Assembly (NCBI GenBank): GCA_965204725.1 | Contig: OZ242005.1 | Location: 3,552,001-3,616,000, forward strand | Length of the DNA: 64,000 nt | Direction: 5' to 3' | Source: Candidatus Latescibacterota bacterium | GTDB taxonomy: Bacteria > Latescibacterota > UBA2968 > UBA8231 | Shown here: positions 24,128 through 50,217 of the stretch, in pieces | Numbering within the stretch: the stretch's first letter is position 1 | Layout: every line of letters starts with the position of its first letter | Notes under the pieces: generated by a model | The model's input: only the letters and a program-made list of their open reading frames with translations | Databases searched by the model: none | Told to the model about the DNA's origin: nothing | Made by a program: the position numbers and the translations under genes

Positions 24128-25399
24128 ATGGAACGGCTTTCACTCCTGTCTGAAGACCAAATTCGCGCCGTCCAACGCCAGTTTGGGACGCCCTCCTTTG
24201 TCTATGACCAAAAGACCTTGGAATCCCAAGCCCAAAAGGCCCTGACCTTTCCCAACGCCTACGGTCTGACCGTGCGCTATGCGGTGAAAGCCTGCCCCGC
24301 AGCCGGCGTGATCCGCATTCTCAACCGCGCCGGCCTGCACATCGACGCGAGCAGTGGGTACGAAGCACGGCGGGCCATGCGCGCGGGCGTCCCCGCGGCC
24401 CAGATTCAGATTACGGCCCAGCAACTACCCGACAATTTAGCAGACCTCGTGGGCCAAGGCGTCCTCTTCAATGCCTGTTCCCTGCATCAGCTCGCAGCCT
24501 ATGGCCGGCTCTTTCCGGGCCGCGAGGTCTCCGTGCGCGTCAACCCAGGCTTGGGCTCGGGACATAGCAATCGCACCAATACGGGCGGCCCTTCGGCCAG
24601 CTTCGGCATCTGGCACGAACACCTCGGGCAAGTGCGGGCCACGGCCGCGGCCCACAACTTGCACATCACCGGCTTGCACAGCCATATCGGCTCGGGCAAC
24701 GACCCGGCAGTCTGGCAGCACTGCGCTCGGCTAACGCTCGGCGTGGCCGCCCAGTTGCCCGAGGTCCGGCGCGTGAATATGGGCGGCGGCTTTAAGGTCG
24801 GGCGCATGGCCGCCGAAGCATCGACCGACTTGCGCACAGCCGGCCAACCGGTCGCCAGCGAATTCAATCGCTTCGCTCGCGAGCACGGCCGCAAACTGCA
24901 TCTCGAAATCGAACCGGGGACCTTCTTGGTGGGCAATGCCGGGGCCATCGTCTGTAGCGTCGTTGACGTCGTTGACACCGGCCAAGAGGGGTATTCCTTC
25001 ATCAAGGTCGATAGCGGCATGACCGAAGCACTGCGCCCCAGCCTGTACGGGGCGCAACATCCCATCGTCGTAGTTCCGGCCACGCCAGAGGAGCGCGGCC
25101 AAGGCGAGTACCTAATCGCCGGGCATTGCTGTGAAAGTGGGGACATCCTCACGCCGGCCCCGGGCAACTCCGAAGAGCTAGCCCCGCGCGTCCTCGCCGA
25201 GCCGCGCATTGGCGACGCGGTTTTTATCGGCGGCAGCGGGGCCTACTGCGCGGGCATGGCCGCCAAAAACTACAATTCCTTCCCGGAAGCGTGCGAAGTA
25301 CTGGTCGGCACCGACGGCGAACTCCACCTGCTGCGCCAGCGACAGACCCTCGACCAAATCGTCGCCAACGAGTCCCTACCCGCTTTCCTCAGCACCTGA
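24128..25399 (+). CDS. lysA: Diaminopimelate decarboxylase
   Basis: FGTPSFVYD, YAVKA (PLP Lys), HSHIGS, NMGGGF, IEPG, RPSLYG, GHCCESGD, GAYC...NYN. Confidence 0.9.
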   Translation: MERLSLLSEDQIRAVQRQFGTPSFVYDQKTLESQAQKALTFPNAYGLTVRYAVKACPAAGVIRILNRAGLHIDASSGYEARRAMRAGVPAAQIQITAQQLPDNLADLVGQGVLFNACSLHQLAAYGRLFPGREVSVRVNPGLGSGHSNRTNTGGPSASFGIWHEHLGQVRATAAAHNLHITGLHSHIGSGNDPAVWQHCARLTLGVAAQLPEVRRVNMGGGFKVGRMAAEASTDLRTAGQPVASEFNRFAREHGRKLHLEIEPGTFLVGNAGAIVCSVVDVVDTGQEGYSFIKVDSGMTEALRPSLYGAQHPIVVVPATPEERGQGEYLIAGHCCESGDILTPAPGNSEELAPRVLAEPRIGDAVFIGGSGAYCAGMAAKNYNSFPEACEVLVGTDGELHLLRQRQTLDQIVANESLPAFLST

Positions 25400-26419
25400 G
25401 CCGCGCAGCTTCGGGTCCAGCGCGTCGCGCAACCCATCGCCGAGCAGGTTGTACAGGGTCACGGTCGCAAAAATGGCTACGCCCGGCACGACCACCAGCC
25501 ACCAAGCGGCCGCATTGCTGCGCGCCCCGGCCAGCAGGGCACCCCAAGTGATCGCTTCGGCCGGCATCCCCACGCCCAAAAAGCTCAGGCCCGACTCGGC
25601 GAGGATGGCACCGGCCACCCCAAAGGCCGCCGGGATCAAAATTGGGCCGATGGCGTTGGGTAGGATGTGGCGGAACATAATCCGCCCGTTTGAGTACCCG
25701 AGGCTGCGGGCCGCGGCCACGTAGTCGTAGCTACGCACCTGCAAAAACTGCGAGCGGGTCAAGCGGGCAATACCGACCCAACTCGTAAGGCCGATGATGA
25801 TCATGACGAAAAACAGGCTCGGCGGGAAAAACGCCGCGACCGTCAGGATTAGGAAGAAGCTGGGGATCGCGGCCCACAGCTCGAAAAGGCGCGAGAGTGC
25901 CAAGTCGATCCAGCCGCCAAAGTAGCCGGCCAACGCGCCCAAGGCCAAGCCAATGGCCAGCGATATGCCCACGGCCACTAGGCCGATGGTCAAGGCGTAG
26001 CGCGTACCGTGAATCAGCCCCGAGAGGACATCGCGTCCCAAGCGGTCTGTGCCCAACCAGTGCTCGGCCCCGGGGGGCTGGTACTTCTCCGGCAGGCGCA
26101 CTTCGCCCGGGGCATAAGGGACCAGCGGGAAGATGGCCTCCTCTAGATCGAGCTTTTTGAAATTGCGCCGACGCTTCAATTCGGCTGGCCAGTCCATCAG
26201 CCCTAGATAGACTGCGTACTGGCGAAAGGCCGGAAAGTACAGCTCGCCCTTGTATTTCATGTAGTACGGCTTGTCGCCAGCGAGTAAATCGGCACTCAAG
26301 GCGACGAGCCCCAGCAAGACCACGCCCAAGAGGCTGAGCAGAGCGGGTCTGTTGTTCTTGAACTGCCTCCAGACGACCTGCCAGTAGGACTGCCCTTGTG
26401 CAACCCCCTCCCCACTCAT
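25376..26419 (-). CDS. Peptide/nickel ABC permease (DppC/OppC/YejE type)
   Basis: HWLGTDRLGRD, GYFGG, YVAAARSLG...HILPN, ESGLSFLGVG, NLLGDGLRDALDP. Confidence 0.95.
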   Translation of the reverse strand: MSGEGVAQGQSYWQVVWRQFKNNRPALLSLLGVVLLGLVALSADLLAGDKPYYMKYKGELYFPAFRQYAVYLGLMDWPAELKRRRNFKKLDLEEAIFPLVPYAPGEVRLPEKYQPPGAEHWLGTDRLGRDVLSGLIHGTRYALTIGLVAVGISLAIGLALGALAGYFGGWIDLALSRLFELWAAIPSFFLILTVAAFFPPSLFFVMIIIGLTSWVGIARLTRSQFLQVRSYDYVAAARSLGYSNGRIMFRHILPNAIGPILIPAAFGVAGAILAESGLSFLGVGMPAEAITWGALLAGARSNAAAWWLVVVPGVAIFATVTLYNLLGDGLRDALDPKLRGSGAEESG

Positions 26420-27715
26420 CTAGGCACTCGCAAAGTCGATGCGCGGGTCCACGGCCTTGAGCAGAATATCCGCCGCCAAGATACCGGCCAGCGACAGAGC
26501 CGAGCCAATGGTGAAGAGCGCCATCGCCATGGGATAGTCGCGCACGATGACCGACTGGAAGGCCAAAAAGCCCATGCCCGGAATGGTGAAGATCGTCTCG
26601 ATAAACACCGAGCCGGCGATCATCCCCGGCAAAAGCCCGGCCATCAGCGTAACAATGGGAATCAGGGAGTTGCGCAGCACGTGGCGCAGCACTACCACCC
26701 GGTAGCGCAGGCCCTTGGCTTGGGCGGTGCGCACGTAGTCCAGCCGCAAATTCTCCAGCATACTGGTGCGCATATAGCGCGAGATACCGGCGAAGCTGGC
26801 GTAGGTCGAGGCCAGTATCGGCAAGACCATGTGGTGGGCGTGGTCGGTCAACAGCCGCCAGAATCCCCAGTCCTCTCCAGCGTCTAGGGATTGAATCCCA
26901 GAGGCCGGAAACCAGTGCAAGAACTCCTTGTTGCAAAAAAACAAGATCAACAGCATGCCGACCCAAAACGAAGGCATCGACCAGAGCATGAAGGTCCCGG
27001 TGGTAACTAAGCGGTCCATAACGCTATTCTGCTCAACCGCGATCGCGATGCCCAGCGGCACGCCGATTAGATAGGCAAAGACTAGGCTGATGAGGTTGAT
27101 TTCGAGCGTGATGGGCAGCCGGTCGAGGATGTGGTCAATGACCGGTTCTTGGTCTTTGAAGGAGCGGCCCAAATTCAGCGTCACCAAACGCCAGCCACCC
27201 GTCTGCATCAGCTCCAAGCCCGACCCGGCATAAGCGTAGTTTTGGACGGGCGAGAAAAGGCGGCTTTGCCAGAAAGGCGATTCGACTAGCTCGTCGATGC
27301 GCTCGGGACGCCGGCCGCGAAAGTGTTCCAAAAAGCGCGCCTTGCGCTCGGCCCCCTCAAGCGAGGCGAGCTCGGCCCGCGCCGCGGCTGGCAGCTCGTC
27401 GAGCACGGCGTCGGCCAACAAGGCCCCGCGCTCGAATGCGCTTAGGTCCTCCACTCGTAGGACCAAGTTGGAAAGCCAGTGCAAATATTGGAGGTACAGC
27501 GGTTGGTCTAGCCCGAGTTGGCGGCGCAAATCCCGGCGCGTCTTTTCCATGTCCGCCTGATGGTCGGTGGAGAGGCCCTCGCCGCTAGCGGCCCCGCCCA
27601 AGAAGAGATCGACCGGATCGCCGGGCGCCAAGCGCATAATCAGGAAGGTCAGCAGGGTGATGCCGAGGAGCGTCGGGATGGCGAGCAGAATGCGCTGGAT
27701 GGTGTACTGCAACAT
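26420..27715 (-). CDS. Peptide/nickel ABC permease (DppB/OppB/YejB type) with a periplasmic insertion
   Basis: LAPGDP, GLDQPLYLQY, LGRSF, RLPITL, YVRTAQAKGL...HVLRNSL, IFTIPGMG, DPRI. Confidence 0.95.
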   Translation of the reverse strand: MLQYTIQRILLAIPTLLGITLLTFLIMRLAPGDPVDLFLGGAASGEGLSTDHQADMEKTRRDLRRQLGLDQPLYLQYLHWLSNLVLRVEDLSAFERGALLADAVLDELPAAARAELASLEGAERKARFLEHFRGRRPERIDELVESPFWQSRLFSPVQNYAYAGSGLELMQTGGWRLVTLNLGRSFKDQEPVIDHILDRLPITLEINLISLVFAYLIGVPLGIAIAVEQNSVMDRLVTTGTFMLWSMPSFWVGMLLILFFCNKEFLHWFPASGIQSLDAGEDWGFWRLLTDHAHHMVLPILASTYASFAGISRYMRTSMLENLRLDYVRTAQAKGLRYRVVVLRHVLRNSLIPIVTLMAGLLPGMIAGSVFIETIFTIPGMGFLAFQSVIVRDYPMAMALFTIGSALSLAGILAADILLKAVDPRIDFASA

Positions 27716-27743
27716 GGGGATGGCGAACTACAGCGTGGGCGAT

Positions 27744-28754
27744 TTATTCCTCTAGTTCTTCTAGTTCTGCGGCGCGATCAAACGCCGCCTCGCTCTCCTC
27801 GACCAAGTCCTTGTGGGCATAAACCGTCCCCAAGTGCATCCACACCAATGCGTTGTTGGGCATTTGTTCGGCGAGTTGCTCCAACAGGGGCAACGCCCCG
27901 TCCATGTCGTCGGTGGCCAAGTGGACCATGGCGAGATTGTAGAGCGCGTCCCCGTCGTCGGGTTTGAGCGCTAGGACCTGCTCGTAGGCCCGCTTGGCCG
28001 CCGTGTATTTTTCTTGCTGCCAGTAGAGGTTGCCCAAGTTAAAGTGGGGCCTGAAATCGTCCGGGGTCCGCTCAATGATCGTGCGATAATTGGCCTCAGC
28101 ACCCTCGTAGTCCTCGGCTTGGGCTTGGGCTTGGGCGAGATTGGTCAGGCCATTGAGGTTTTCGGGATCGATCTTGACCCCCTGCGACAAGGCGCGGATG
28201 GCGTCGTTGAGACGTTCCTTTTTTAGGTAGAGCGACCCTAGGTTAAAAAAGGCCCGGGCGTCTTCTGGGTCCGCCGACGCGATCTTCTGGTAGGTGGCAA
28301 TGGCCGCATCCGTGCTGTCGATCTGGTAATAGACATACGCGAGGTTGCGCCAAGCGTCGAGCGCGCCCTCGTCAATGAGGGTGGCGTTGTGAAACGAATG
28401 CCGCGCCAAGGCGTAATTCGGGGCCTCGCCTTGGGCATGGCCGACGCCGGCATTGTACTCGCGCACCCAGTAGAGGCGGCGAGTTTGCTCAATTTCCGTC
28501 TGAAACTTGGGGCTGATCGCAGCCGAACTATTCAAGTGAGCAACCATTTCGCCATAGCGGCCCTCGGCCCCTAAGAGCTTGCCCATGAGATAGTGGGCTT
28601 CGGCGTTGTCGGGTTCGTTCTGCAAGACCAAGACGAGTTGTTCTCGGGCCTTTTGCGGCTTCTCTTCCTTGATATAGAGCTTGGCGGCCGTCATGGTCGA
28701 ACTCTGACATCCCAATCCGGCGACGAGCACCGCCAGCCAACCTGCAAACTTCAT
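27744..28754 (-). CDS. TPR-repeat lipoprotein
   Basis: Lipobox (VAGLG-C), then about 8 TPR motifs (AEAHYLMG, AWRNLAYVY, AFFNLGSLY, ALYNLAMVH). Confidence 0.88.
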   Translation of the reverse strand: MKFAGWLAVLVAGLGCQSSTMTAAKLYIKEEKPQKAREQLVLVLQNEPDNAEAHYLMGKLLGAEGRYGEMVAHLNSSAAISPKFQTEIEQTRRLYWVREYNAGVGHAQGEAPNYALARHSFHNATLIDEGALDAWRNLAYVYYQIDSTDAAIATYQKIASADPEDARAFFNLGSLYLKKERLNDAIRALSQGVKIDPENLNGLTNLAQAQAQAEDYEGAEANYRTIIERTPDDFRPHFNLGNLYWQQEKYTAAKRAYEQVLALKPDDGDALYNLAMVHLATDDMDGALPLLEQLAEQMPNNALVWMHLGTVYAHKDLVEESEAAFDRAAELEELEE

Positions 28755-28785
28755 AAGAATCTCCTTTGGCGACCGCCTACCCTGT

Positions 28786-29820
28786 TCAGAAACCGAACTG
28801 AAAGGTAAACGTATTGAGTGCGTCGAAATAATCGACCGTGGTGTAGGCGTAATCAACGCGCAAATTTTTGAGCGTCCCAGCCTCTACATTCAACCCAAAG
28901 CCGAAGCTGGTGCCATAGATGTAGTCGTCGGCCGAGCGGGGCGCGTAATCAAAGCCCGCGCGCAGGGCGAAGAAATCGCTCACCAGATACTCGGCCCCCA
29001 ACCGGTACTGGTCGTAGGCGAAGTTGTTGTGCCGGAAGACCGAGGACACGTTGAGCGCGCCTAGCCCCGCGGGCGTATAGCGGTAGCTCAGACCGAGTTC
29101 AAACGTCGAGGGCAGGTCGGCCGAACTAGCCTGTACATTGTAATCAGCCGGGCCGCGCCGCACTCCATCAATCTGGCCGCGCCGCAACAGGTCGGAACCG
29201 CCAAACTGCATCCGCGTCCCAATGTGCTTGAGCGCGACGCCCAAGTCCAAGCCGGCAATCCCTCCCAGATTGGCGTATTGCAGGCCGGCACTAAACGAAG
29301 TCGCCGCGGCCTCGACGCGCTGGATGCGGTTGACGACATAATGGCTGGTGAAACCAACGGCGATGCGGTCGGTCAGCGCTCGGGCGAAGGTCAGGCCCAG
29401 CGTGAAGAAGGTCGGCGAAAAAGTCGCACCGGTGCCGTCTGGATTGGCCTCGGTGGTCACCGGAATGTCGCCAAAGCTCAGGGCCTTGATGTCGAAAGCG
29501 AGCGAACCGATGCTCTTGAAATTCGCGCCGGTAGCCAGATAGTTGATGCGGGTATCTGCCAGATACGACATCGTCGAGAACAGGATGCCCGCGTTGGATT
29601 CGGACTTGGACAGCCCTGCCGGGTTCCAGTGCAGGGATTCCAGCCCGGAGCTGGTGGCGATCGCGGCACCGCCCAAGGCCATGTCGCGGGCACCAACCGG
29701 AATCAGCAGTTCCGGGGCTGCGGCCGTCCCGGCGCGGTCATAGCCGTCGGCAAAGGCCGGAGCCGAGGCGAAAACCAACGCCAGCAGGATCGTCGAGATG
29801 CAAAGCTTGTGTCGAAGCAT
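28786..29820 (-). CDS. PorV/PorQ-like (UPF0164/FadL-type) outer membrane beta-barrel
   Basis: L.IPVGAR.MALGGA, HWNPAGL, GAEY...FALRAG, VDYAY, C-terminal FQFGF. Confidence 0.88.
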   Translation of the reverse strand: MLRHKLCISTILLALVFASAPAFADGYDRAGTAAAPELLIPVGARDMALGGAAIATSSGLESLHWNPAGLSKSESNAGILFSTMSYLADTRINYLATGANFKSIGSLAFDIKALSFGDIPVTTEANPDGTGATFSPTFFTLGLTFARALTDRIAVGFTSHYVVNRIQRVEAAATSFSAGLQYANLGGIAGLDLGVALKHIGTRMQFGGSDLLRRGQIDGVRRGPADYNVQASSADLPSTFELGLSYRYTPAGLGALNVSSVFRHNNFAYDQYRLGAEYLVSDFFALRAGFDYAPRSADDYIYGTSFGFGLNVEAGTLKNLRVDYAYTTVDYFDALNTFTFQFGF

Positions 29821-29842
29821 GGAATGGCCTCCTGTTTCTCCC

Positions 29843-32800
29843 CTAGAAGTTCTGCAAGAACTGCTGCTCTTGGATGATGGCCAGCTTGAGGACGCGGCTC
29901 ATGCCGGTCCCCGGTAGCTCGATATGGGCGATGTACATGCCGCTGGCCACCGGCAGTTCGTTGTGGTTTTGCAGATCCCAGCGCGTGAACTGCGACGGAT
30001 CGTCTTTCTCAATCGTACGCACCAGCGTACCGCTCATGTCGAAGATGCGGATATTCGCCTTGGGCGGCAGGTGGCTGAAGGTCACGAAATGGTTGTAGCG
30101 GCTGGTCTCCGCCTCGTTGACCCCTAAGTAGGGATTGGGAAAGACGTTGATCTTTGAGACGCTTTCCTTGGCCAACGCTTCGGAGTACCGCTCGGCCGTC
30201 ACGCTGAACTCAAACTCGTCTTCACCAGCCACCACGGTATTGCCGATGGTGATCTTTATGACGTCGCCCGTTGACCAGACCGAAGCTCCGCCCTGCAAAA
30301 AGAAGTAAACCCACGTGGTGTTTTCGTCTGTCAACTCGTGGATCTTGGCTGGGTCGTAGTCGGTGTGGACGATGGTGATGTAGTCGCGCCCCGGCATGTT
30401 GTACGTCTGGTGATAGGCCACGCTGCCTTCGTCCCTCGATCCGTCGGCCCCGCGGTCGTAAAACACGGCGTTCAACTGGCGCGGATTGTCCGGGTCCTCC
30501 ACGTCCCAGACCTCAAAGGGCACGCGCTGGAGGAAGGCACCGGTCGAATCCGATACCTCGGCGGGCTTGAAGGGGTGCGCCGCAATATCGCGCTCGCCGC
30601 TGCCGCCGCTGACGCCCCCGAGGGTCGCCATCGAGCCGCCCTCAACGATGCTGGTCGAATCGGCACTCCATACGCCGGTGAAGCGGAACTCAATGTCGCG
30701 CACGAGCCGAATGTCACCGGCCCCGCCGCCATCCCAGAAAGTCGAGCCATAGCCATCGGCAAAGCCGAAGAGCGTACCGTCGCCCCAGAGTGTGAGGTCG
30801 CCATCGTCAGGATTGGCGTCGTTGGTCACTGCGGCGCTGATGTAGGTCGTCGGGTTGGTAAAGACCAGATTACCCACTTTCACTTGCAGGCCATCGACGA
30901 TGGGATAGCTCTCGTCGAGGGAAATGTTGCTCTCCCGGTCAATTACCCGCTCCCCGTCGCGCAACAGGCTCCAAGTCGCGTCGTCGTTGAAGGCTACCTT
31001 GTAGGTCGCCTCTTGCAGGGCGGTCGGATCGATCACCAGCGGATATACGCTGGCATCGCCAATGCCGTTGGTGTGTTCGACGGATAGCGTATCACCCGGT
31101 GCCTCGTGAGTGCGGGTGATGCCCGGAGGCGCGACTTGTGGTACACAAGTGATGATCTGCGGGCTGCTCTCTAGGGTGGTGGTCGTGGCCGCGTCTTCCG
31201 AAGTGGCGCGATTGTACGCGGTCACCGCGAAGTGGTACTGCTGGCCGTTGACCAACGGGCCGCCGCGCAATGCGTCGTCGCCCAGCGTGATATAGCGTTG
31301 GAGGCCTCGGTCGTTGCCGATCTGCAAAGGCACGTCGAGCACCACGCCGGATTGCTCGTCGAGCGCGATACCCAATATGGTCGTCACGCCGTTGACTAAA
31401 TCAAAAGTGGCGACCCGAGTGCCTTGGCTCAGCGTCGCCTCGGCGGAAGGCAGTTGATAGACATTGTAGCCTTCAAAATCAAAACCGGGCGAACCCGTGC
31501 CTTCGGTCTCAGCCACCGACGCTGGGTCCCAACCCCAGTTGAGTACAATGGTCTGATCCAACTCAATTAGGCGGACATTGGGCCGGGCCGGCGGCTTGGG
31601 GACCTGAAAGAAGCTGTTGTACGCGTCCTGCACGAACTGGTCGGTAAACTTGAGCTTGGAGACGCTGCGCAGGCGGTCGGTGCTGCTCGCGCCCAAAAGT
31701 GCGACCACCACTTCTTGCGTGTCTCCCAATGCCATCTCAAACGGGCCGGTCGCCATTACGATGCGCCGGTCGCCGGCCGGCAATGGGATTCCGTCGTTCC
31801 AGCCCGTGGCTCGCGTTGGGTCGCCAGCGAGCGTGAACTTGGTATCCTCGTTGGTCAGCGGATTGGTATAGGGCACGGGGTTTTCAATGTCGGCCTGCGG
31901 CTGGAAGCCCTGCAACAGGTTGTACCACTGCAAGGTTCCGTCGTACTCCTGCAAGTCCGGGTCGCTAATCGACGACCCAGCCGCAAAGTACACGAAAGCG
32001 GTCATCGGCAAATTTTTGTACCCGGGCCTTAGGCCGTCGTTGAAGATCGCCACCGAGCTCTCGTCGAGCAGCGGGTTGCCTTCCTCATCCACGGCGACAT
32101 TTCCCTCCTCGTCGAGTAGGTACACCGGCACGATCGGGCCTTGCAAAAAATCGTAGCCCGCGGCCGGCGGTGCCAGCCCAAAGTTCACGTAATGGGAGTC
32201 GTCGTCAATTGAGTTATACACGTATCCGAGGCTCAAATCGACATCGGCGCCGGCAAAGTCGTCGCCAAAGTCGCCCAAGTCCGGGTCGGACCATTGGGCC
32301 AAGTACATGTCCTCGACGCGCGCCGTGTCCGGCGTACTTTCAGTGCCCTTGTAAATGACCTTGTACTTCTTAAAAATCGCGTCGCCCAGCGCGTCCGTGC
32401 GGGCGTACCCCCACAGCGTCACCTGCGTTTCCATGCCAATCGGCAGGGCGCCGTAGAGGCTGGCGACAGCCCCTTCGTCCAAGTCGTTGACCGCGAACCA
32501 GATCACTTGGTCGGCATTGGCCAGCCCCGGCTCGTCCACCGCGGGGTCGTAGCTTCCGTCGCCGTTGTTGTCGTAAAAGGGAGCGCCCAACTCGGCCGGC
32601 CATTCCATCCAGTCGCGCTCGTATTGGGCGCGCACGGCCTCCTCATCGGCCGCGGTGACTGCGCTCAGGCCCTTGTTGAGGACCTCAGAGGCGTCAAGGC
32701 GCAAATCAGCGGTAGCATAGTCGCGGCGAATTCGGTACAGACGCGCTGTATCGCGGTCTTGGGCCACCCCCTTCGACTCAATGACGCCCGGGACCGTGCC

Positions 32801-33133: not shown

Positions 33134-33158
33134 GGTGTACTTCCTCGCTTTTAAGCGG

Positions 33159-36314: not shown

Positions 36315-36345
36315 ATCTCCCTCCTTATGGAGTAGTTCGATACCC

Positions 36346-37059: not shown

Positions 37060-37062
37060 GGC

Positions 37063-38537: not shown

Positions 38538-38546
38538 GGCCCCTCC

Positions 38547-39794
38547 TCAATAGGGAGTAAAGAAGTAGGTTAGCTGGGGGAACAGCCCGGCCGTTGCCAA
38601 GAGCGTACCCAACGCCAAGACGGCCAAAATAAGGGCCTTGCCGGCGTCTTGGCCCTTGAGAGTGCCCAGCATCCGCGGCTCACCGGATAGATAGGCACTG
38701 GCGGCGTAGAGCTCTTCGCCGAGCAGTGTATAGTCGCAGGTAGTAATGAAGAACGGCAACTGGGTGAAGGCGTCGGTGCCGGCGATCTGGATCGCCCCAG
38801 TAGTAGAACCTGTCTCGGCCAACAGCAGGGACTCGGCGTAGAAATATCCCATCATAATGTGGGCGGCTGGCCGGTCGCGGAGCATGAGGCCCTCGACAGC
38901 GGCTGCATAGCTAAACTGCTCGGCCCCGGCGATGAAGACGTGATCGGGGTTGAAGGCATCGGGCCGCCCCGCCTCGATGTACGAGGCTTTCACCGTCTCC
39001 TGACTCACGGACATGACCACTGGATCGGGCGCGACCACCCGCAGCGCGGTGTCGTATTCGGCCGTGCGCCGCGCGACCCGCCCCAAGATGTTGACCGCGG
39101 CAATGGTCGAAATCTGGCTCATGTCGCGCAGGCCGTGGATGAAAAGCACCGGCTTGCCCATCTCGGTCGCCCGCCCCAACGCTTCGTCAAGGGCTTCTAG
39201 CCCGGCAATGCGGCGAATTTTGAGTTCGCGGCGACGCGCAATGCCAATGTAGCCCATGATAAGCCCTGAAAACAGGAGGCATAACACCAGATTATTGGCC
39301 TTGGCGCGATTGAAGAAATTGCCGGCCGACTCGGCTTGGACGATCACTTTGCCGCGGATCGCGCCCCCGGCCGACCGCACATCCACGTGAAAGTAGTACG
39401 TCTTGCCGTCTTCCAACGGGGTCTTTCCGCCCGCGCCCGCAAATTCTTCGACGTTGACGTAATGGCGATTCGCTAGCTCGTCCCCGTGCCCAAAGAGCGC
39501 CGGGGCCTCGGCCATCAAATTCTCCGTGGCCGCGACCTCGGCCGCGACGCGAAAAGGCCCGTTGGGCGAGTCGGCGATAGCTACCTGATAAATCGCGTTT
39601 TCACTGATTTGACGGTCCCGCGGCCAAGTCAGGGTAATACTGCCCCCGTCGTCGTTGGGGGTGTCAAAGGCTTGGACCTCAATCGGCGGCTTAGGGTGGG
39701 CCAGCAGTGTGCCCAGCCCTTGTTCTGCATTTTCCGCCGCGCTCGCCAACGGCCAAGCCAAGACGAGTGTAGATAGCCAGCTTTTTGCGCTCAT
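38547..39794 (-). CDS. FN3-like domain plus DUF6754-type membrane protein
   Basis: Signal peptide; FN3-like AFDTPNDDGGSITLTW...GKTYYFHV; TM; IRRIAGLEALDEALGRATEMGKP, FYAESLLLAETG, AIQIAGT..QLPFF...CDYTLLGEELYAASAYLS; C-terminal TM. Family name recalled, not searched. Confidence 0.8.
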   Translation of the reverse strand: MSAKSWLSTLVLAWPLASAAENAEQGLGTLLAHPKPPIEVQAFDTPNDDGGSITLTWPRDRQISENAIYQVAIADSPNGPFRVAAEVAATENLMAEAPALFGHGDELANRHYVNVEEFAGAGGKTPLEDGKTYYFHVDVRSAGGAIRGKVIVQAESAGNFFNRAKANNLVLCLLFSGLIMGYIGIARRRELKIRRIAGLEALDEALGRATEMGKPVLFIHGLRDMSQISTIAAVNILGRVARRTAEYDTALRVVAPDPVVMSVSQETVKASYIEAGRPDAFNPDHVFIAGAEQFSYAAAVEGLMLRDRPAAHIMMGYFYAESLLLAETGSTTGAIQIAGTDAFTQLPFFITTCDYTLLGEELYAASAYLSGEPRMLGTLKGQDAGKALILAVLALGTLLATAGLFPQLTYFFTPY

Positions 39795-39798
39795 GCCT

Positions 39799-40914
39799 TT
39801 ATCCTTCAATCAACTCCACATTCGCCCGCGGGACTACGGCCTGCTCTCCGCCTTCAAACTCGACAGCCAACACCCGCACCCGCGCCCCGGACTCTACCTC
39901 GCACAACTCGGTCGGCAAGTCTCTGACGCGCCCAACCCGCCCAAAATAGGGCATCCGAATCACGCGCAACAAATCGCCCACCTGCAACCCGGTCTCGCCC
40001 GGCCGCCCCTCTTCTTCCCCTGTGTCAGCGGCTGCGGGGATGATGATTTCCGGCCGCAACACGCCGGCGCGAATCTGAGTCGCGCCGGCCATAGACGCAT
40101 CCATGCCAGCACACGCTTGTAGAATGTCAAAGGGCTTGCGGGCCATGGCGACGCGGCCAAAGCCCTCGGTCGCTACCACGGTCAGGCCGATTTGCTCGGT
40201 CCCGGTGATGGCCACGCCCAAGTCGCGCCCGAGCAGGTCTCGTAGGTCGCGGTCGCGCAGGCCGCCGCCAATCAACCCCACGGCCCCGGCCTGCCGGGCC
40301 TGTTCTACGGTCTCCGCGCTAATCAGGCTGCCGACCACTGCGATCTTGCCCGCCACTTCGGGACCCAGCGGCCCGACGAGGGCGTCCGGGGCATCAACCG
40401 CCAAGTGCAGCGCACCCCAGCACTCACCCCCCACGCCGAAAATGCCTTGGATATACGCACCGCACGCTGCGACGCGCACTCCCTCCGCGGCAAAGACCTC
40501 CTCTACGACCCCATCGACGTACGCCAGCACTTCAACCGGCTTAGGTGCTTGGCGCAAAATCACCTGCCCCGTAACCGGCGAAATGCTTTCGACCGTGCCG
40601 CGGACCGGGGATTCAATGGTGGTCTTGAACCACCGAATAAACGGCTTGGTCGCGGCGAGCGGCTCGCCGGCTTCGACTCGGTCGCCTTCTTTTTTGAGCA
40701 TGTAGCCGGATAGTTCGCGCGGCGCGATGCCCAAGCGGTTGACCAAGTTGAGAGTCGCCACCTCGCCCGGCAGTTCGGTGCGCGCCACGACTTGGTCGCG
40801 GCGCACCGCTTGGCCGCGCTCGACGACCACTTCGCCTTTGAGGGGCAACCGCCGCTCTTTGTGGACGACTGCGCGTTGCGTCACGCGCAGCCCAGGGGTA
40901 TAAGCGTGGGCCAT
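39799..40914 (-). CDS. Uncharacterised cytoplasmic protein with barrel-sandwich-hybrid repeats and a C-terminal KOW/SH3-like domain
   Basis: VVERGQAVRRDQVVA and LKKEGDRVEAGEPLA...SPVRGTV hybrid motifs; QGIFGVGGE; TEGFG..M; TQIRAGV.RPEII; LQVGDLLRVIRMPYFGRVGRV. Confidence 0.8.
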   Translation of the reverse strand: MAHAYTPGLRVTQRAVVHKERRLPLKGEVVVERGQAVRRDQVVARTELPGEVATLNLVNRLGIAPRELSGYMLKKEGDRVEAGEPLAATKPFIRWFKTTIESPVRGTVESISPVTGQVILRQAPKPVEVLAYVDGVVEEVFAAEGVRVAACGAYIQGIFGVGGECWGALHLAVDAPDALVGPLGPEVAGKIAVVGSLISAETVEQARQAGAVGLIGGGLRDRDLRDLLGRDLGVAITGTEQIGLTVVATEGFGRVAMARKPFDILQACAGMDASMAGATQIRAGVLRPEIIIPAAADTGEEEGRPGETGLQVGDLLRVIRMPYFGRVGRVRDLPTELCEVESGARVRVLAVEFEGGEQAVVPRANVELIEG

Positions 40915-40917
40915 GAG

Positions 40918-42699
40918 TTACTCGTATAGGTTTAACGCCCGCTGCCAGTCGCTTATCTGACGCCGGCGGTCGCGGTCAGTCGCCATGTCTATGGGTCGCC
41001 CGCGACCATCGAGCACGAGCCCTACGGCCCCACCGCGCACCCGCGCATTGAGCGCGTGGCCCGGGCCGGCACCCACATCCCACCGCCGCGCCGGCTGGAG
41101 TGCGATTTCGACCTCCTCGCCGTCGGCCAAGGGCAGCCACTGTAGCTCGCCGACCTCCAACTGGCCGGTTCGCCGCCCGCTGGGCAGGTCTAGTTCGTAT
41201 TGGAGGCACACCTCGCCGCCCTTGCCCGCGCCGACCGGGGCCACACACGTACCCAAGTAGATCAGGCAATCGCGCTCAAAAACCTCGGTGGCAGCCCGCT
41301 CGTCAACGGTCGAGAGCACCCCCAAGTGAGGCATCATAAAGATGCTATCGACCGCCAAGCGGGTGACGCCTTCGGGCTGGAAGGCATCTATGAGCATGGC
41401 GCAACTCTGCGCTCGGCGGGGCGCGTGCGAGAGTACGCCGCCGCTGCCGACTAGCATGTCCAGCGTCATCATCTCGACTAAACTCTCGCCGGTGGCACCC
41501 TGCTCAAAGACATCGGCCAGCGTGCGCTTGCTCTGCACCCCCTTTAATCCCACCGCCAACGCCCGGTGCTGGTCAAAGGCCAAGCGCAGGGCCTCGCGGG
41601 CAATGGCTTGCTCGACTTGCAGTTCCTGCATGAGCTGCGGGATGGTCGTCGGGCGGATCATCTTGTTTTTGATCCGGTCGCGGAGGTCGGCCTCCTCAAT
41701 GTCAAAGGGAACCCAGCGCATGATCTGGTCGAGGCCAGCCTCGGCCAGCACGTTGGCGACGCTATAGGACATGCCGAGGTTGGCGCTGACCGTGCGGTTG
41801 AACACGCCATCGAAAACGCTGAACACATCGGTCGTCGCTCCGCCAATATCTACGCCGACGACGTTGATTTCCTGCTGACGGGCAATGGTCTGCATGATCT
41901 GGCCTACGGCCCCGGGCGTGGGCATAATCGGCGCGCTGGTCCAGCCCATCAGCTTGCGGTAGCCCGGGGCCTGCGCCATGACGTGGTCGAGGAAGAGGTC
42001 GTGAATGACGTGCCGCGCCGGGTCCAGATTTTCCCTTTCGAGCACGGGGCGGATGTTCTCGGTAACGGTCAGGGCCATCTTGCCCCCTAGTGCTTTTTCG
42101 ACCTCCTCGCGTGCGTCTTTGTTACCCGCAAAAATAACCGGCAGCTTAAAGCCCGCGCCAAAGCGGGGCTTGGGGTCGGCCGCGCTGATGAATTCGGCCA
42201 ATTCGACCACGTGGCTGACCGTACCGCCATCCGTGCCGCCCGACAGCAGCACCATGTCGGGGCGCAACTGGCGGATGCGTTCTATTTTTTCGTGCGGCAA
42301 GCGCCCGTCGTTGGCCGCGAGCGCGTCCATGACGATGGCCCCGGCGCCCAAGGCGCAGCGCTGCGCGCTCTCGCCGGTCATCGCCAGCACCACGCCGGCC
42401 ACCACCATCTGCAACCCGCCGCCCGCACTGCTCGTCGAGATGTACATATCGGCCCCGACATCGCCAGCGGCTGGGGCAATAATCCGCTCGCCATCGAGAA
42501 TTTGCCGCCCGGACAGTTCCTCGACCTCTTGAATGGCGTTGAGCACCCCCCGGGTGACGTCCTCAAAGGGGGCCTCAACCGTGGTGGGGGCCTCGCCGCG
42601 AAAGGTCTGGCGATACCCCTCGTCCTTCTTTTCGATGAGGATCGCCTTCGTCGTCGTACTGCCGCAGTCCGTGGCGATAACTACGTTGAGGTCATCCAT
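40918..42699 (-). CDS. GlmL/MutL(glutamate mutase reactivase)-like ASKHA ATPase with a C-terminal extension
   Basis: Phosphate-1 ATDCGSTTTKA, SSAGGGL, SGGTDGG, PTPGAV, phosphate-2 VDIGGATTDVFS, RTVSANLGMSYS, adenosine GSGGVL. Confidence 0.88.
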   Translation of the reverse strand: MDDLNVVIATDCGSTTTKAILIEKKDEGYRQTFRGEAPTTVEAPFEDVTRGVLNAIQEVEELSGRQILDGERIIAPAAGDVGADMYISTSSAGGGLQMVVAGVVLAMTGESAQRCALGAGAIVMDALAANDGRLPHEKIERIRQLRPDMVLLSGGTDGGTVSHVVELAEFISAADPKPRFGAGFKLPVIFAGNKDAREEVEKALGGKMALTVTENIRPVLERENLDPARHVIHDLFLDHVMAQAPGYRKLMGWTSAPIMPTPGAVGQIMQTIARQQEINVVGVDIGGATTDVFSVFDGVFNRTVSANLGMSYSVANVLAEAGLDQIMRWVPFDIEEADLRDRIKNKMIRPTTIPQLMQELQVEQAIAREALRLAFDQHRALAVGLKGVQSKRTLADVFEQGATGESLVEMMTLDMLVGSGGVLSHAPRRAQSCAMLIDAFQPEGVTRLAVDSIFMMPHLGVLSTVDERAATEVFERDCLIYLGTCVAPVGAGKGGEVCLQYELDLPSGRRTGQLEVGELQWLPLADGEEVEIALQPARRWDVGAGPGHALNARVRGGAVGLVLDGRGRPIDMATDRDRRRQISDWQRALNLYE

Positions 42700-43027
42700 G
42701 CTTTTGGCTTTCGCGCTGGGCAATGGCCTCTGCGAGCAAGTCTATGCACTGGCGGCGCTCCAACATGCGCGTAAAGCGCTGGTACTCGGTGCGCGAAAAA
42801 ACCAGCGTGGCAAACGGGGCCAAAAAGGCCAAGGCTTGGCTCCCCAAAAAGTTGAGCGGGCGACAGGCCTCCAGCGCCATGGCCGCAGCCGCTCCCATGC
42901 GGCGACTCACTATAAACTCGGCCAGCCGCTCGACGAGGGCGCGCTCGTCTTCAGACCAACCCGCCGCGGGGTCTTCGAGGGCAAAGGCGTGCCGCCACTG
43001 CGCTTTTAAGTTATTGAATCGGAACAT
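42692..43027 (-). CDS. Small helical hypothetical protein
   Basis: 111 aa; overlaps both neighbours; LE..RPLNFLGSQ and LERR motifs. Confidence 0.75.
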   Translation of the reverse strand: MFRFNNLKAQWRHAFALEDPAAGWSEDERALVERLAEFIVSRRMGAAAAMALEACRPLNFLGSQALAFLAPFATLVFSRTEYQRFTRMLERRQCIDLLAEAIAQRESQKHG

Positions 43028-43427
43028 GGCACCGGACGAAACGCGCAACTTCTTCGCGGTTTTGATCGAAGCGCAAAAAAACGCCGCGAAAGGAATCGAG
43101 CCGACCCGGGCGGGCGGATGGACGCAAAAAAATGCCGTCTCGCTGTTCGTCAGCCCGGCGGAACTCCACCCAAAAACGGCGTTGTTTGAGGCCGAGGTGT
43201 TCGCTACGGATCCCTTCGCTGTTGAGTACGTAGCGCGTGGGAAAGAAATAGCGCGACAGCGAGGCGGTCAATGCTCCGAGTGAAAATAGTCCGTAAAACC
43301 AATGCTCAAAACCAACGGCCGCTGCCGCTGAGGAAGCGACGATCAGCGCGACCAACAGCATTGACTTGGCCGGCTTCTCTCGGCGCAGGGGGAGGCTCTC
43401 CCAGCGGAGGGTGTCTGCACAGGACAC
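43011..43427 (-). CDS. Small 2-TM protein with a basic soluble (PH-like) domain
   Basis: Two TM segments, then YFFPTRY...W.EFRR...LDSFRGV.LRF; 6-bp gap after the binding-protein gene. Confidence 0.75.
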   Translation of the reverse strand: MSCADTLRWESLPLRREKPAKSMLLVALIVASSAAAAVGFEHWFYGLFSLGALTASLSRYFFPTRYVLNSEGIRSEHLGLKQRRFWVEFRRADEQRDGIFLRPSARPGRLDSFRGVFLRFDQNREEVARFVRCHVPIQ

Positions 43428-43433
43428 GAGCTG

Positions 43434-45269
43434 CTAGTACATCTGCTCTTCCTGCGCGACCCACCAGTCTTGCAAGCGGACGCCGGGGGGATACCAAGTG
43501 ATGCCGCTGAAGCGGCGGCTGTAGGCTTGGGGCGAGCGCGGCTTCCACATGAAGGTGTATGGCTGTTCCTCGTGCAGGATTTCTTGAAAGCGGCGGTAGA
43601 GCGCGATGCGCTTGTCCGCGTCGAACTCGCGGCGATAGGACTCCAAGATGTGGTCCACTTCGTCGTTGATAAAGACTACGTGGTTGGAGCCGTTCTCTAC
43701 GGCTTGGGAGGAATGCCAGATCTGGTAGCCATCGGGCGCAAAGCGCAAACTGCCGGTCCAAGCCAGCACCGTGGCGTCGAAGTTTTTGCGCCTGATCCTT
43801 TGCAGAAAGATCGACCAGTCCAATTCGCGCACTCGGCAGTCAATGCCGATGTCTTGCAGCTCGTATTGGACCGTTAGGGCGATGTCTTTGCGGATCTGGT
43901 TGCCCGAATTGACCAAGATCTCAAAGCGAAACGGCACCAACTCCTCATCGATGACCTTGTCGAGGATGCCGTCCTCGTCGGCGTCTGCCCAGCCCGCCTC
44001 CGCGAGCAGGTCGAGGGCGCGGTCGGGGTCGTAGGGGTACGGCGCGAGGTCGTGGTTGTATTCGGGGCGGAATTTGTGAATCGGCCCCTCTACCGCCTCG
44101 GCCAAGCCGAACATGATGTTCTCCACCATGCCCTCGCGGTCCGTCAAATAGGTCATGGCTTGGCGCACCCGCTTATCGCCGAAAATCGGGTGGTTGTTGT
44201 TCCACCCGATGTACACATAGCCGCTGGAGTAGCTAACCCCTTTGAGGAAGCGGCGGTTAAAGTCGTCGGACCAGCTCTTTTCCCTGAATTCCAGCGGGCG
44301 CAAGCTGTGGTAATCGAGGTGGCCGTTGGTCAACTCAATGAACGCCGCGTCGGTGTTGTTGATGATCTTAAAAACCACCTTATCGACAAACCCGGGCGGC
44401 AGCAGCCCTTCGACATCCCGGCCCCAGTAGTTTGCATTCCGCGTCAGCACGACTTTCTGCTGAGTGACCAAATCGCGCTCTGGGTCTTCAATCCGGTACG
44501 GCCCCGACCCGAGGGCCTGGCGATTGAAGTTTTGGTTGAACTGCTCGGCAAAGCGCTGGACCCGGTCCTTGTGAGGCCCCGCCTCCCAAGAGCCATCCAC
44601 CAAGCTGGTGAGCTCGACCGGGTCCATCAGCCCCTCCGGGTCGTAGAAGTGTTTGGGCAGGATGGAAAAGCCGCCCAAGATCAAGTCGTTGCGGAAATAC
44701 GGCTCGCGGCAAAGGAAGCGAATTTTGTTGGTCTCTACGATCTGCACGTCGCGGACGGTGGCGTAGTAGTTGCGCAGGTGCGGAGCGAGTACTTGGGGAT
44801 TGTGGATGACCTTCATGCTGAAGACGACGTCCGCGGCCGTCAGCGGCTTGCCGTCTGAGAAGTAAACCCCATCGCGCAACTCAAACGTGTACGCGAGTTT
44901 GTCCGCGGAAACCTTCGGGTACTCTTTGGCGATCTGACCCCGCAGGTTGTACGGCGGATCGTGCTCGGCGTCGAGCAGGCCCTCAAAGATATGCTCCAGC
45001 ACCCTACTGGTGCCGGCATCGCTGGAGGTGTACGGGTTGAGTCTTTCGGGGTCGGACAGCAGATGGCGCACCATCCAGTCGCCGTGGGTGGGCTCGTCTT
45101 CCCCCTCGTAGCGCAGGGGTGCCTTCTCAGTGCCGTCGAGTACGACAATATCCTTGGTACTCATGAGGATTTTCTGCACCACCTCCCACGCCCCTTCCTC
45201 AGCGGCGGCATGGCCGACGACGCAAAGGGCCAACCAAGCGGCCACTACGGACATTCTACACTTAGGCAT
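43434..45269 (-). CDS. Family 5 (peptide/nickel) ABC substrate-binding protein
   Basis: DPERLNP, YTFELRDGVYFSDGKPLTAADV, GSGPY, YIGWN...DKRVRQAM, YDPDRA..LL.EAGW, QEILHEEQPY; SD AAGGAG. Confidence 0.93.
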   Translation of the reverse strand: MPKCRMSVVAAWLALCVVGHAAAEEGAWEVVQKILMSTKDIVVLDGTEKAPLRYEGEDEPTHGDWMVRHLLSDPERLNPYTSSDAGTSRVLEHIFEGLLDAEHDPPYNLRGQIAKEYPKVSADKLAYTFELRDGVYFSDGKPLTAADVVFSMKVIHNPQVLAPHLRNYYATVRDVQIVETNKIRFLCREPYFRNDLILGGFSILPKHFYDPEGLMDPVELTSLVDGSWEAGPHKDRVQRFAEQFNQNFNRQALGSGPYRIEDPERDLVTQQKVVLTRNANYWGRDVEGLLPPGFVDKVVFKIINNTDAAFIELTNGHLDYHSLRPLEFREKSWSDDFNRRFLKGVSYSSGYVYIGWNNNHPIFGDKRVRQAMTYLTDREGMVENIMFGLAEAVEGPIHKFRPEYNHDLAPYPYDPDRALDLLAEAGWADADEDGILDKVIDEELVPFRFEILVNSGNQIRKDIALTVQYELQDIGIDCRVRELDWSIFLQRIRRKNFDATVLAWTGSLRFAPDGYQIWHSSQAVENGSNHVVFINDEVDHILESYRREFDADKRIALYRRFQEILHEEQPYTFMWKPRSPQAYSRRFSGITWYPPGVRLQDWWVAQEEQMY

Positions 45270-45279
45270 ATTCTCTCCT

Positions 45280-46200
45280 TCACACAAACGTCAACCATCC
45301 GTGCCGATCCTCAACTTCGACGCGAACCACGGCGAAAAAGCCCTTTTGGATCTGCGCGGTGATCGGCCCGCACTTGCCGCAGCCGATCGGCACTTGGTCT
45401 ATGGCGCGGATCGGCGTGATTTCGGCCGCCGTACCCGTGAAAAATACCTCGTCGGCGATGTAGAGGAACTCGCGCGGAATTCCGCGTTGCTCGACCCGCA
45501 TCCCCAGATCGCGGATCAGGGTAATGGCGGTGTGGCGGGTGACCCCCGGCAGGATGGCAAAATTAGACGCGGGGGTATAGATCGAGCCGTTTTTGATCAC
45601 AAAGAGGTTCTCGCCGCTGCCCTCGCTGACCAATCCATCCGTTCCCAAGACAATGCCCTCGTCGTAGCCGTTCATATTGGCTTCAATCCGCACGAGCTGG
45701 GAGTTGAGGTAGTTGCCGCCGGCCTTGGCCAAGGCCGGAAACGTATTCGGTGCCATGCGATTCCACGACGAGGTGCAGACCGAAACGCCGTTTTTGAGCG
45801 CGGCCTCGCCGAGGTACTCTCCCCACTCCCAAACGGCGATTACTACGTCAACCGGGCACTCCATCGGATCAACTCCGAGGTTGTCGTAGCCGCGGAAGAC
45901 GACCGGGCGGATGTAGCAAGCCGCGAGTTGATTGACGCGGATCGTCTCGAGGATGGCCTCGCTGATTTCCGCTGGCGTATAGGGAATTTCCATGCGGTAG
46001 ATCTTGGCGGAGTCAAACAGCCTGTTGACGTGCTCGTCGAGGCGGAATACGGCCGAGCCTTTCGCCGTCTTATAACAGCGAATGCCTTCAAAGACGCTCG
46101 ATCCGTAGTGTACTACATGGGAGAGCACGTGGATCTTGGCGTCATCCCAATCGACCAATTGGCCATTGAACCAAATTTTATCGCATTTGGGTAGGGGCAT
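45280..46200 (-). CDS. ilvE: Branched-chain amino acid aminotransferase
   Basis: [53 protein letters not shown]. Confidence 0.97.
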
Positions 46201-46281
46201 GCAGAACATCTCCTTGGGCAAGTATGCGAGTAATTAAGGTAACACCACTGCGAAATCGTTACCAGTGTTAAGGTTAAGCTA

Positions 46282-50209: not shown

Positions 50210-50217
50210 GCCAATCC

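Follow-up and report, generated by a model that had tools for sequence, protein, structure and literature searches.

Organization of the locus

We analysed a window of 64,000 nucleotides from Candidatus Latescibacterota bacterium (assembly GCA_965204725.1, contig OZ242005.1, forward-strand positions 3,552,001 to 3,616,000). The genome measures 5.43 Mb in two contigs and is 94% complete. A first-pass annotation, made from the letters of the window alone, had proposed that about 21 kb of it form a single operon encoding an undescribed envelope-spanning peptide-acquisition system. The list of open reading frames (ORFs) of the window does contain the array on which this proposal was built: 16 co-oriented, tightly packed genes on the minus strand, from 46221 down to 25376. 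Calculated from the longest ORFs, the spacing between neighbouring genes lies between −71 and +31 bp; the three widest gaps measure 31, 28 and 22 bp.

Read 5' to 3', the array starts with ilvE and the gene for a solute-binding protein (SBP). These are followed by a module of eight genes, by a trio of genes for outer-membrane and surface proteins, and finally by the genes for a TPR protein and two permeases of DppB and DppC type. We refer to the SBP, TPR, DppB and DppC genes as unit A, to the trio as unit B and to the eight-gene module as unit C. The family calls place components in the outer membrane, the periplasm, the inner membrane and the cytoplasm, so the array combines these compartments as the annotation had said. 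Most of its family calls are confirmed by Pfam and NCBIfam, with the exception of one membrane protein described below. Pfam and NCBIfam families are absent for 5 of the 16 genes: the two small proteins, the membrane proteins of 219 and 237 aa, and a protein of 272 aa.

The choice of ilvE as the start of the unit is not supported, since co-oriented and tightly spaced genes continue upstream. The same-strand run extends past ilvE through OMP696, rsmA, holB and the gene for a MalK-like ABC ATPase (46282..51327, minus strand, from ORFs and gaps), and then through further minus-strand ORFs to about 57.7 kb. We named rsmA, holB and the MalK-like ATPase by reading their translations and not by a family scan. 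The 60-bp gap just upstream of ilvE is the widest in the whole run.

Transcription signals contribute little. The window contains 3 sigma-70 promoter-like sites where 4.8 are expected (the consensus may not apply to Latescibacterota) and 30 terminator-like sites where 18.6 are expected. None of either kind falls inside an intergenic gap of the 16-gene array, in a scan that is uninformative for this phylum.

Unit C: an ATPase set and a membrane cassette

Unit C consists of a set of four proteins that includes a soluble ATPase, and a cassette of four membrane proteins. All coordinates in this and the next section refer to the minus strand unless we say otherwise. The set begins with two small proteins that match no Pfam or NCBIfam family, s138 (43011..43427), which has one strong hydrophobic segment, and s118 (42692..43048). 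The s138 gene lies upstream of the ATPase gene in 21 of 30 Latescibacterota genomes, and the s118 gene lies next to it in 24 of the 30. Both arrangements are also found at loci of other phyla.

The third protein is an ATPase of 601 aa (40918..42723). It belongs to the GlmL/MutL family of ASKHA ATPases (PF13941, 425.6 bits, E 3e-127) and extends about 115 aa beyond the Pfam domain. Both ASKHA phosphate-binding motifs are readable in its sequence. It scores 162.5 bits against TIGR01319, under the cut-off of 204, and stays far under the equivalog cut-offs of GlmL (NF040745, 234.3 versus 475) and Or-4 (NF040744, 213.4 versus 600). Across phyla, its relatives are 62–78% identical. It is the sole PF13941 gene in this genome, and a search for the glutamate mutase E subunit (PF06368) finds nothing in the genome, whose completeness is 94%. 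Public records call relatives of this ATPase "glutamate mutase L" or "methylaspartate mutase" (P0298, P0334, P0361, P0379 and others, from metagenome-assembled genomes (MAGs) of Zixibacteria). These names are probably misleading or wrong, because the gene sits in a membrane-cassette context and this genome lacks mutase genes.

As a separate observation, many ATPase matches in genus g5 and in G105/G115 are flagged as containing one TGA. Selenocysteine was considered and rejected for G138, the one genome in which we followed the flag: there a stop-free ORF spans all of the match but its first residues, so that the TGA lies just upstream of the start.

The fourth protein (39799..40914) is predicted to be cytoplasmic and to have three domains, according to an AF2 model (pLDDT 86) and the VIA fold search. 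Residues 51–123 form a barrel-sandwich hybrid like that of NqrA and RnfC (Z 7.5–7.7 over 64 residues). Residues 152–294 form a swivelling beta/beta/alpha-type domain that resembles Enzyme I, the C-terminal domain of pyruvate kinase and RraA (Z 8–9.3 over about 106–125 residues), with Enzyme I as the best match at Z 9.3. A KOW/SH3-like barrel occupies residues 309–371 (Z about 8). All of these matches have only middling Z values. At the sequence level, the protein passes the threshold for Biotin_lipoyl (26.0 bits versus 22.1) and falls below those for RnfC_N (22.3 versus 25.6) and NQRA_N (18.1 versus 25). Neither PDB profile search nor fold search finds a solved relative over its full length. 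We considered a role as lipoyl carrier and set it aside. A gene like LplA, a lipoate-protein ligase, is a recurrent neighbour, yet K97, the only candidate for a lipoyl-type lysine, is too poorly conserved (34 of 48 sequences); it also lies off the canonical position.

The membrane cassette begins with a gene (38547..39809, the seventh of the array) whose product carries a signal peptide, an FN3 domain, a transmembrane (TM) helix, a Rossmann-like DUF6754 domain and a second TM helix (PF20539, E 2.1e-111). The AF2 model has a pLDDT of 93. Model and fold search agree on the FN3 domain (Z about 10.5), as annotated in the first pass. The Rossmann-like domain is six-stranded and matches generic folds only, which at Z about 10 are those of PGK, sirtuins, TrkA-N and KtrC. 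Foldseek adds weak matches to Moco-carrier proteins and DprA, and an Atlas search with this gene returns DUF6754 clusters only. Within the family, R199, R213, E216 and E326 are invariant or near-invariant and C358-D359 is near-invariant. The named relatives of the protein are Candidatus Latescibacterota MAGs.

The second cassette gene, mem219 (37878..38537), encodes a polytopic membrane protein of 219 aa with about five hydrophobic segments and no curated family. It always follows the DUF6754 gene. The third, p272 (37063..37881), encodes a bitopic protein of 272 aa with no family, in which hydropathy places a soluble domain between two TM segments. The fourth, mem237 (36346..37059), encodes a polytopic membrane protein of 237 aa, again with no family, in which the polar residues N54, E61, H188 and R218 are invariant among 35 sequences. 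Topology and charge rules suggest that the FN3 domain and the soluble domain of p272 are periplasmic and that the Rossmann-like domain is cytoplasmic.

p272, the ninth gene, is the exception among the family calls mentioned above. It had been annotated as DUF6754-like, but BLASTP finds nothing and hhalign gives a probability of 0.4% for a relation to the seventh gene. The eighth and tenth genes, mem219 and mem237, show no relation in hhalign either. PDB profile searches with the barrel-sandwich protein and with each of the four proteins of the cassette yield nothing below E 0.01. Pfam scans of individual members of mem219, p272 and mem237 give no consistent family; the only recurrent match is a weak one to TMD0_ABC, in 13 of 35 members of mem219. 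No Rnf or Nqr family is found in the four membrane proteins.

Outside subscription journals and supplements, our literature search returned no paper on DUF6754 or PF13941. Among the papers listed for PF20539, PF13941 and GlmL together, "glml" occurs in unrelated senses only, and GlmL with glutamate mutase leads to unrelated work. Hence the claim that the central ATPase-plus-membrane module is undescribed is supported by the literature covered and by the profile searches with these five proteins, which find no solved relative.

The outer-membrane trio and the Dpp/Opp-type importer

Unit B starts with a TonB-dependent receptor (TBDR, 33159..36314) that carries an N-terminal carboxypeptidase-regulatory-like domain (PF13715, PF13620) and a Plug domain (29.3 bits versus 23.9). 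Its barrel region has weak matches to TIGR01782/01783. The SusC/RagA model TIGR04056 covers residues 32–157 only, which are 126 N-terminal residues, and scores 58.9 bits against a cut-off of 368. The next gene (29843..33181, probable start 33133) encodes a secreted protein of 1,112 aa with the C-terminal domain (CTD) of T9SS, the type IX secretion system. The sorting-domain score is marginal (TIGR04183, 24.2 bits versus 23), and the tail matches the tail of PorZ. Pfam offers no further family for this protein, and an Atlas search with it leads to unnamed or CTD clusters. The third gene (28786..29820) encodes an outer-membrane barrel of the PorV/PorQ family (NF033709, 147.8 bits versus 90; PF19572, E 1.2e-10). 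The CTD protein and the barrel are below the NCBIfam equivalog cut-offs of PorV, PorQ and PorZ. No SusD/RagB-type family is found by Pfam or NCBIfam in the three proteins downstream of the TBDR; this was a search by sequence family and not by structure. Each of the three trio genes is single-copy in this genome.

The barrel probably tethers the neighbouring CTD protein by its C-terminal domain. This is the likeliest arrangement by analogy, because PorU is anchored by PorV and PorZ by PorQ (PMC5562754). The genome also encodes an SprA-family T9SS translocon above the cut-off (C1:3034166-3039466), and 87 T9SS sorting-domain matches genome-wide indicate a large set of T9SS cargo.

Unit A contains the core set of a Dpp/Opp-type importer, a family-5 SBP and two BPD_transp_1 permeases. 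The SBP (43434..45287, 617 aa) is of the Dpp/Opp/Nik type and predicted to be periplasmic (PF00496, E 6.5e-76). It is below every NCBIfam equivalog cut-off, including those of Opp4A, NikA, DppA and OppA. Hence its substrate is not assignable, and "peptide" is a guess from the family name. On the far side of units B and C lie the TPR protein (27744..28856, probable start 28754, assigned by TPR families), which has a signal- or lipoprotein-like N-terminus, and the two permeases. The DppB/OppB-type permease (26420..27715, 431 aa) matches PF19300 over residues 1–86 and PF00528 over residues 218–426; the DppC/OppC-type permease (25376..26419) matches PF12911 and PF00528. In the DppB-type permease, an insert of about 130 residues (roughly 87–217) separates the N-terminal TM domain from the conserved core. 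Orthologues in relatives are of equal length and cover the insert-bearing permease to about 100%.

No pair of Dpp ABC ATPases with an oligo_HPY region is encoded in the window. The best DppD/F matches of the genome lie 2.9 Mb away (C1:690841-692852) and are 67–69% identical to the module-linked DppD/F of a relative. We confirmed the oligo_HPY region of DppD/F in one relative only. The DppD/F matches of this genome (C1:690841-694374, outside the window) sit behind rnc and a gene like LplA. In the relative G091, it is the module that comes directly after these two genes. This suggests that the module has moved away from its former rnc/LplA-like neighbours in this family.

The remaining gene of the array, ilvE (45280..46221), encodes a branched-chain amino-acid transaminase (NF005146, 440 bits versus a cut-off of 279). 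It closes a block, MalK-like ATPase-holB-rsmA-OMP696-ilvE, that family f1 keeps whether or not the module is present. ilvE is part of this conserved, housekeeping-like block rather than of the unit C module.

Conservation within Latescibacterota

To compare arrangements, about 32 kb around the DUF6754 gene were taken from 30 Latescibacterota genomes of 12 families, and the window proteins were mapped by tblastn. The four cassette genes, DUF6754-mem219-p272-mem237, are contiguous and co-oriented in all 30 genomes. The ATPase gene is seen in 26; the contigs of the other four end too early. In 18 of the 26 it sits upstream of DUF6754 at a distance of up to 4.5 kb, and the remaining eight carry an insert between the ATPase and barrel-sandwich genes. 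In six of these, the insert is an orthologous SBP-DppB-DppC set. One (G091) carries a paralogous Opp-type set that brings ATPases of its own. Where Dpp genes are inserted in unit C, two ATPase genes follow mem237, and they have ABC_tran and oligo_HPY domains in the one genome scanned. The last of the eight (G025, locus L044) carries about 8 kb of unrelated ORFs, one of 1,113 aa and several small, which look toxin-antitoxin or defence-like by eye only. Since an unrelated insert occupies the same junction, we regard the ATPase/barrel-sandwich junction as a recurrent breakpoint.

Two genomes of the genus share the full order of 16 genes. A TBDR orthologue is found within the fetched region in only 4 of the 30 genomes.

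Twelve further regions, all from family f1, show how the units come apart. The f1 backbone reads MalK-like ATPase-holB-rsmA-OMP696-ilvE-SBP-(TPR)-DppB-DppC, followed by the lysA-like gene and a carbamoyltransferase gene. Six of the twelve regions have this backbone with neither trio nor module, two of them from genomes that lack the module entirely. In two (G068, G145), the trio sits between SBP and TPR in the absence of the module, and the series SBP-trio-TPR-DppB is uninterrupted, including DppC where the contig allows. In the other four, the trio stands alone elsewhere in the genome. The TPR gene is located between SBP and DppB in module-less relatives too.

Phyletic counts were obtained from one draw of 151 genomes of the phylum, used for DUF6754, the ATPase, the TBDR and the SBP. 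DUF6754 and the ATPase are each found in 131 of the 151 genomes. Both occur in 130 and neither in 19; the two discordant genomes are fragmented assemblies. Because of this co-occurrence, we conclude that the ATPase and the cassette belong together. The other two proteins are distributed differently. Full-length TBDR orthologues are confined to f1 (56 of 66 genomes). SBP orthologues are present in 75 of 151 genomes: 49 of 66 in f1, 20 of 22 in f4, 4 of 31 in f2 and 1 of 3 in f3.

Unit C beyond the phylum

Unit C extends far beyond Latescibacterota. A DUF6754 profile search of 1.84 billion representatives, clustered at 50% identity, finds 2,921 clusters at E ≤0.001 and 1,142 at E ≤1e-30. Those with a name belong to Nitrospirota, Brocadiia and "Deltaproteobacteria" MAGs. 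While the C-terminal domain is conserved, the N-terminal part varies, and total lengths among the best 150 matches range from 322 to 3,882 aa. In nine long members, the DUF6754 domain is preceded by FN3, HEAT, a PQQ beta-propeller or nothing known. A homologue search for a cultured carrier of the module returned MAGs for all named matches.

A scan of GTDB species genomes gives at least 598 matching stretches, from which we analysed 79 loci. They derive from Eisenbacteria, Zixibacteria, WOR-3, Ignavibacteria-labelled, Coatesbacteria, Edwardsbacteria, Stahlbacteria, Aegiribacteria, Fermentibacteraceae, Gemmatimonadota-labelled and Myxococcota-type MAGs. As far as contig ends allow counting, 54 loci have one cassette copy, 12 have two and 13 have three. 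Typically, one s138-s118-ATPase-barrel-sandwich set precedes the first cassette (for example L125, L129, L148 and L155). Some cassette loci lack an ATPase gene. In all five such genomes studied, an ATPase gene is encoded elsewhere (64–67% identity), and together these genomes hold 18 DUF6754 copies and 5 ATPase genes. The WOR-3 chromosome G154 (2.3 Mb) carries six DUF6754 copies at five places and a single GlmL-family ATPase gene.

Unit C is conserved, and one soluble ATPase/adaptor set is common to one or several cassettes whose periplasmic heads are exchangeable. We consider this conclusion firm.

Linkage to the other two units is also found outside the phylum. Downstream sequence of 9 kb or more is available at 35 loci; six of them have a TBDR-like gene, five of the six also a PorV-like gene, and one of the 35 has Dpp-like genes. 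A seventh TBDR-like locus, L136, has less downstream room. The seven come from Eisenbacteria, Fermentibacteraceae and unnamed bacteria. In the Eisenbacteria loci L100 and L139, the order is gcvT-gcvH-gcvPA-gcvPB, the eight-gene module, a TBDR, a protein of some 700 aa whose end is CTD-like, and a PorV-like barrel. The domain make-up of the TBDR in both loci is that of the window TBDR, and the TBDR counterpart of an Eisenbacteria locus also matches PF00593. In one Eisenbacteria locus, Dpp-like genes follow the cassette. Clustering of flanking ORFs groups TBDR genes from 3 Latescibacterota units and 7 others, and PorV-like genes from 2 and 5.

Metabolic genes recur among the neighbours as well. 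The same clustering finds LplA-like genes in 8 Latescibacterota units and 4 others, and glycine-cleavage genes in non-Latescibacterota units whose number varies from 5 to 11 by gene cluster. L139 and two shorter loci, L114 and L122, have an LplA-like gene between module and TBDR. In L100, L139 and L172 (Eisenbacteria, Fermentibacteraceae), the module is directly preceded on its own strand by the glycine-cleavage genes gcvT, gcvH, gcvPA and gcvPB. In a Fermentibacteraceae locus, ORFs resembling ExbD and TonB, by eye only, come after the receptor.

A proposed nested composite of three units

In our proposal, three separable units are nested into each other to make up the 16 genes and most likely cooperate in one uptake route, and we hold this reading as a whole with about even confidence. 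Unit A would be a Dpp/Opp-type ABC importer operon in the backbone behind ilvE. Unit B would be an outer-membrane trio of TBDR, T9SS-secreted surface protein and PorV/PorQ-family barrel. Unit C would be an inner-membrane machine in which the set of ATPase, barrel-sandwich protein and two small proteins serves one or several four-protein cassettes. The first cassette protein would combine a variable periplasmic domain with a cytoplasmic Rossmann-like domain. In this genus, units B and C are located inside unit A, between SBP and TPR-DppBC.

In such a route, unit B would carry the substrate across the outer membrane and unit A would bring it into the cell. Unit C would be an ATP-dependent accessory complex that acts on or delivers the periplasmic substrate. 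Gene content, modular structure, distribution and folds are results of the analysis; we infer that the units cooperate, that their proteins form physical complexes, that ATP is used and that the substrate is peptide. Cooperation is the likeliest option because pairwise links between the units take a different form from lineage to lineage. That the units are functionally linked is plausible but not obligate, because they also occur apart.

A wider reading of unit C is tentative. A single ASKHA-ATPase/adaptor set could energise interchangeable four-protein cassettes and thus represent a new class of inner-membrane machine. The periplasmic heads (FN3, HEAT, beta-propeller) would select substrates or partners, and the machine would be plugged into a TBDR/ABC route in Latescibacterota and Eisenbacteria. 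We think it possible, but would sooner doubt than assert it. If unit C is a transporter or an energiser, it would be a new way to couple ATP to the inner membrane. It is found in many uncultured lineages, including Latescibacterota, Eisenbacteria, Zixibacteria, WOR-3, Fermentibacteraceae, Coatesbacteria, Nitrospirota, Brocadiia, Ignavibacteria-labelled and Myxococcota-type MAGs. In that case, the reconstruction of nutrient uptake from MAGs of these phyla would change.

Several observations weigh against cooperation of the three units. A TBDR orthologue is present in all five f1 genomes without unit C, and none is full-length outside f1. An SBP orthologue is present in three of these five module-less genomes and in none of the 28 genomes of other classes, 14 of which have unit C. 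By these phyletic patterns, the module does not depend on having TBDR or SBP as partner. Of the 35 roomy loci in other phyla, 29 have no TBDR-like gene and 34 have no Dpp-like genes. The f1 arrangements are non-independent kin and may go back to one event, either an insertion or an excision or dispersal. The Foldseek and VIA matches for unit C are domain-level or generic, and none assigns a function. In a by-eye alignment, the barrel-sandwich protein has a glutamine where Enzyme I presumably carries its phospho-histidine. A search of sequencing runs lists six runs from four studies that contain this DNA, and no RNA run.

Alternative explanations

The strongest alternative is that units A, B and C are functionally unrelated and were juxtaposed by rearrangement. 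Unit C would then be self-contained and serve, for example, envelope biogenesis, surface-protein handling, or ion or solute transport. We regard this as clearly possible, short of probable. The phyletic patterns of the units are independent, each unit is found alone in sister genomes, and unit C stands alone at most loci outside the phylum. Furthermore, co-orientation carries little weight in such a long same-strand run, and the ATPase/barrel-sandwich junction also takes unrelated inserts (G025). What speaks against mere juxtaposition is that each of the three pairwise links is seen again with other gene orders. The adjacency of sub-modules in other genomes, which the first-pass annotation had named as a check, is found repeatedly, in different arrangements and lineages. 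Dpp genes lie inside unit C in f2–f4, unit C lies inside the Dpp operon in f1, the trio lies inside the Dpp operon without unit C, and the trio follows unit C in other phyla. Besides, trio and unit C are each single-copy in a 5.4-Mb genome, which makes chance adjacency unlikely.

Alternatively, unit C could be a cytoplasmic or membrane-bound enzyme that converts amino acids. The GlmL-like protein would then play the part of reactivase or chaperone that is known from B12-dependent mutases, and metabolism, not transport, would explain the link to Dpp, ilvE and glycine cleavage. The ATPase is indeed in the GlmL family. ilvE is a neighbour here, gcvT/H/P and LplA-like ligase genes are neighbours in Eisenbacteria loci, and an LplA-like gene adjoins the module or DppD/F in Latescibacterota. 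Against these neighbourhoods stand the missing glutamate mutase E subunit, the ATPase scores far under the GlmL and Or-4 equivalog cut-offs and the incomplete conservation of K97. Moreover, four of the eight genes encode membrane proteins with variable periplasmic domains. We consider an enzyme improbable.

Least likely of all, and largely refuted by the phyletic and synteny data, is one obligate, indivisible 16-gene operon and peptide-acquisition machine as originally annotated: the tight packing, the coverage of compartments from surface to cytoplasm and the identical order in two genomes of one genus agree with it, but the module lacks a TBDR or SBP orthologue in most of the phylum, both of these also occur without the module, each sub-module stands alone in sister genomes with a phyletic pattern of its own, ilvE stays with rsmA, holB and OMP696, and DppD/F are 2.9 Mb away.

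Relation to known systems

In our preferred reading, the composite of three cooperating units, A and B are variants of systems already known in kind, and for unit C we found no described kind that it matches. Uptake routes that combine a TBDR, a periplasmic binding protein and an ABC permease exist, for example those of Fhu, Btu and Nik type. Units A and B likewise provide a chain of receptor, SBP and permease, and they do so in one array in two relatives. They differ from these routes in that the ATPases are unlinked, the receptor is paired with a CTD protein and a PorV/Q-family barrel, and the eight-gene module is inserted.

ECF and ABC importers can share one energising module among several components for the membrane or for substrate capture. 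Similarly, the ATPase set of unit C is common to several cassettes with differing periplasmic domains. However, this ATPase has an ASKHA fold (GlmL family) and not an ABC fold, no cassette protein falls into a transporter family, and transport by unit C is putative. With GlmL/MutL of glutamate mutase, the ATPase shares PF13941. It differs in scoring below the equivalog cut-off, in the lack of mutase E in the genome and in its strict coupling to membrane-protein genes. The resemblance to Nqr and Rnf complexes is limited to the 64-residue barrel-sandwich like that of NqrA/RnfC; RnfC_N and NQRA_N are below their cut-offs, and no Rnf/Nqr membrane family is present.

The outer-membrane part has closer parallels. 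In Bacteroidota, RagAB imports oligopeptides and is described as a peptide analogue of the outer-membrane importers of polysaccharide-utilisation loci (10.1101/755678). Thus the statement that no described system has this composition agrees with our searches for unit C and is too wide for the outer membrane. RagAB and SusCD resemble unit B in placing a TBDR with an N-terminal carboxypeptidase-regulatory-like domain beside a surface-exposed partner (10.1101/755678; PMC7618045). The difference is that no SusD/RagB lid is found among the neighbours; here the partner would be the CTD protein with the PorV/Q-family barrel. Unit B also resembles the T9SS pairs PorU:PorV and PorZ:PorQ (PMC5562754), since the gene for a CTD protein lies beside that for a PorV/PorQ-family barrel and SprA is present in the genome. 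It differs from them in that the window proteins are not PorV, PorQ or PorZ equivalogs and the body of the CTD protein has no known family.

Genomic surroundings

Downstream of the array, a lysA-like gene (24128-25399, plus strand) is convergent with the DppC gene. Upstream, OMP696 (46282-48372, minus strand) encodes a protein of 696 aa that is rich in Ser, Asn and Arg and has no Pfam or NCBIfam family. It is kept between rsmA and ilvE throughout family f1 with 42–84% identity and may be an outer-membrane protein. Towards the end of the window, from 54000 to 64000, the G+C content drops from about 0.60–0.65 to 0.52–0.56 and the GC skew becomes negative. This region may be of different origin.

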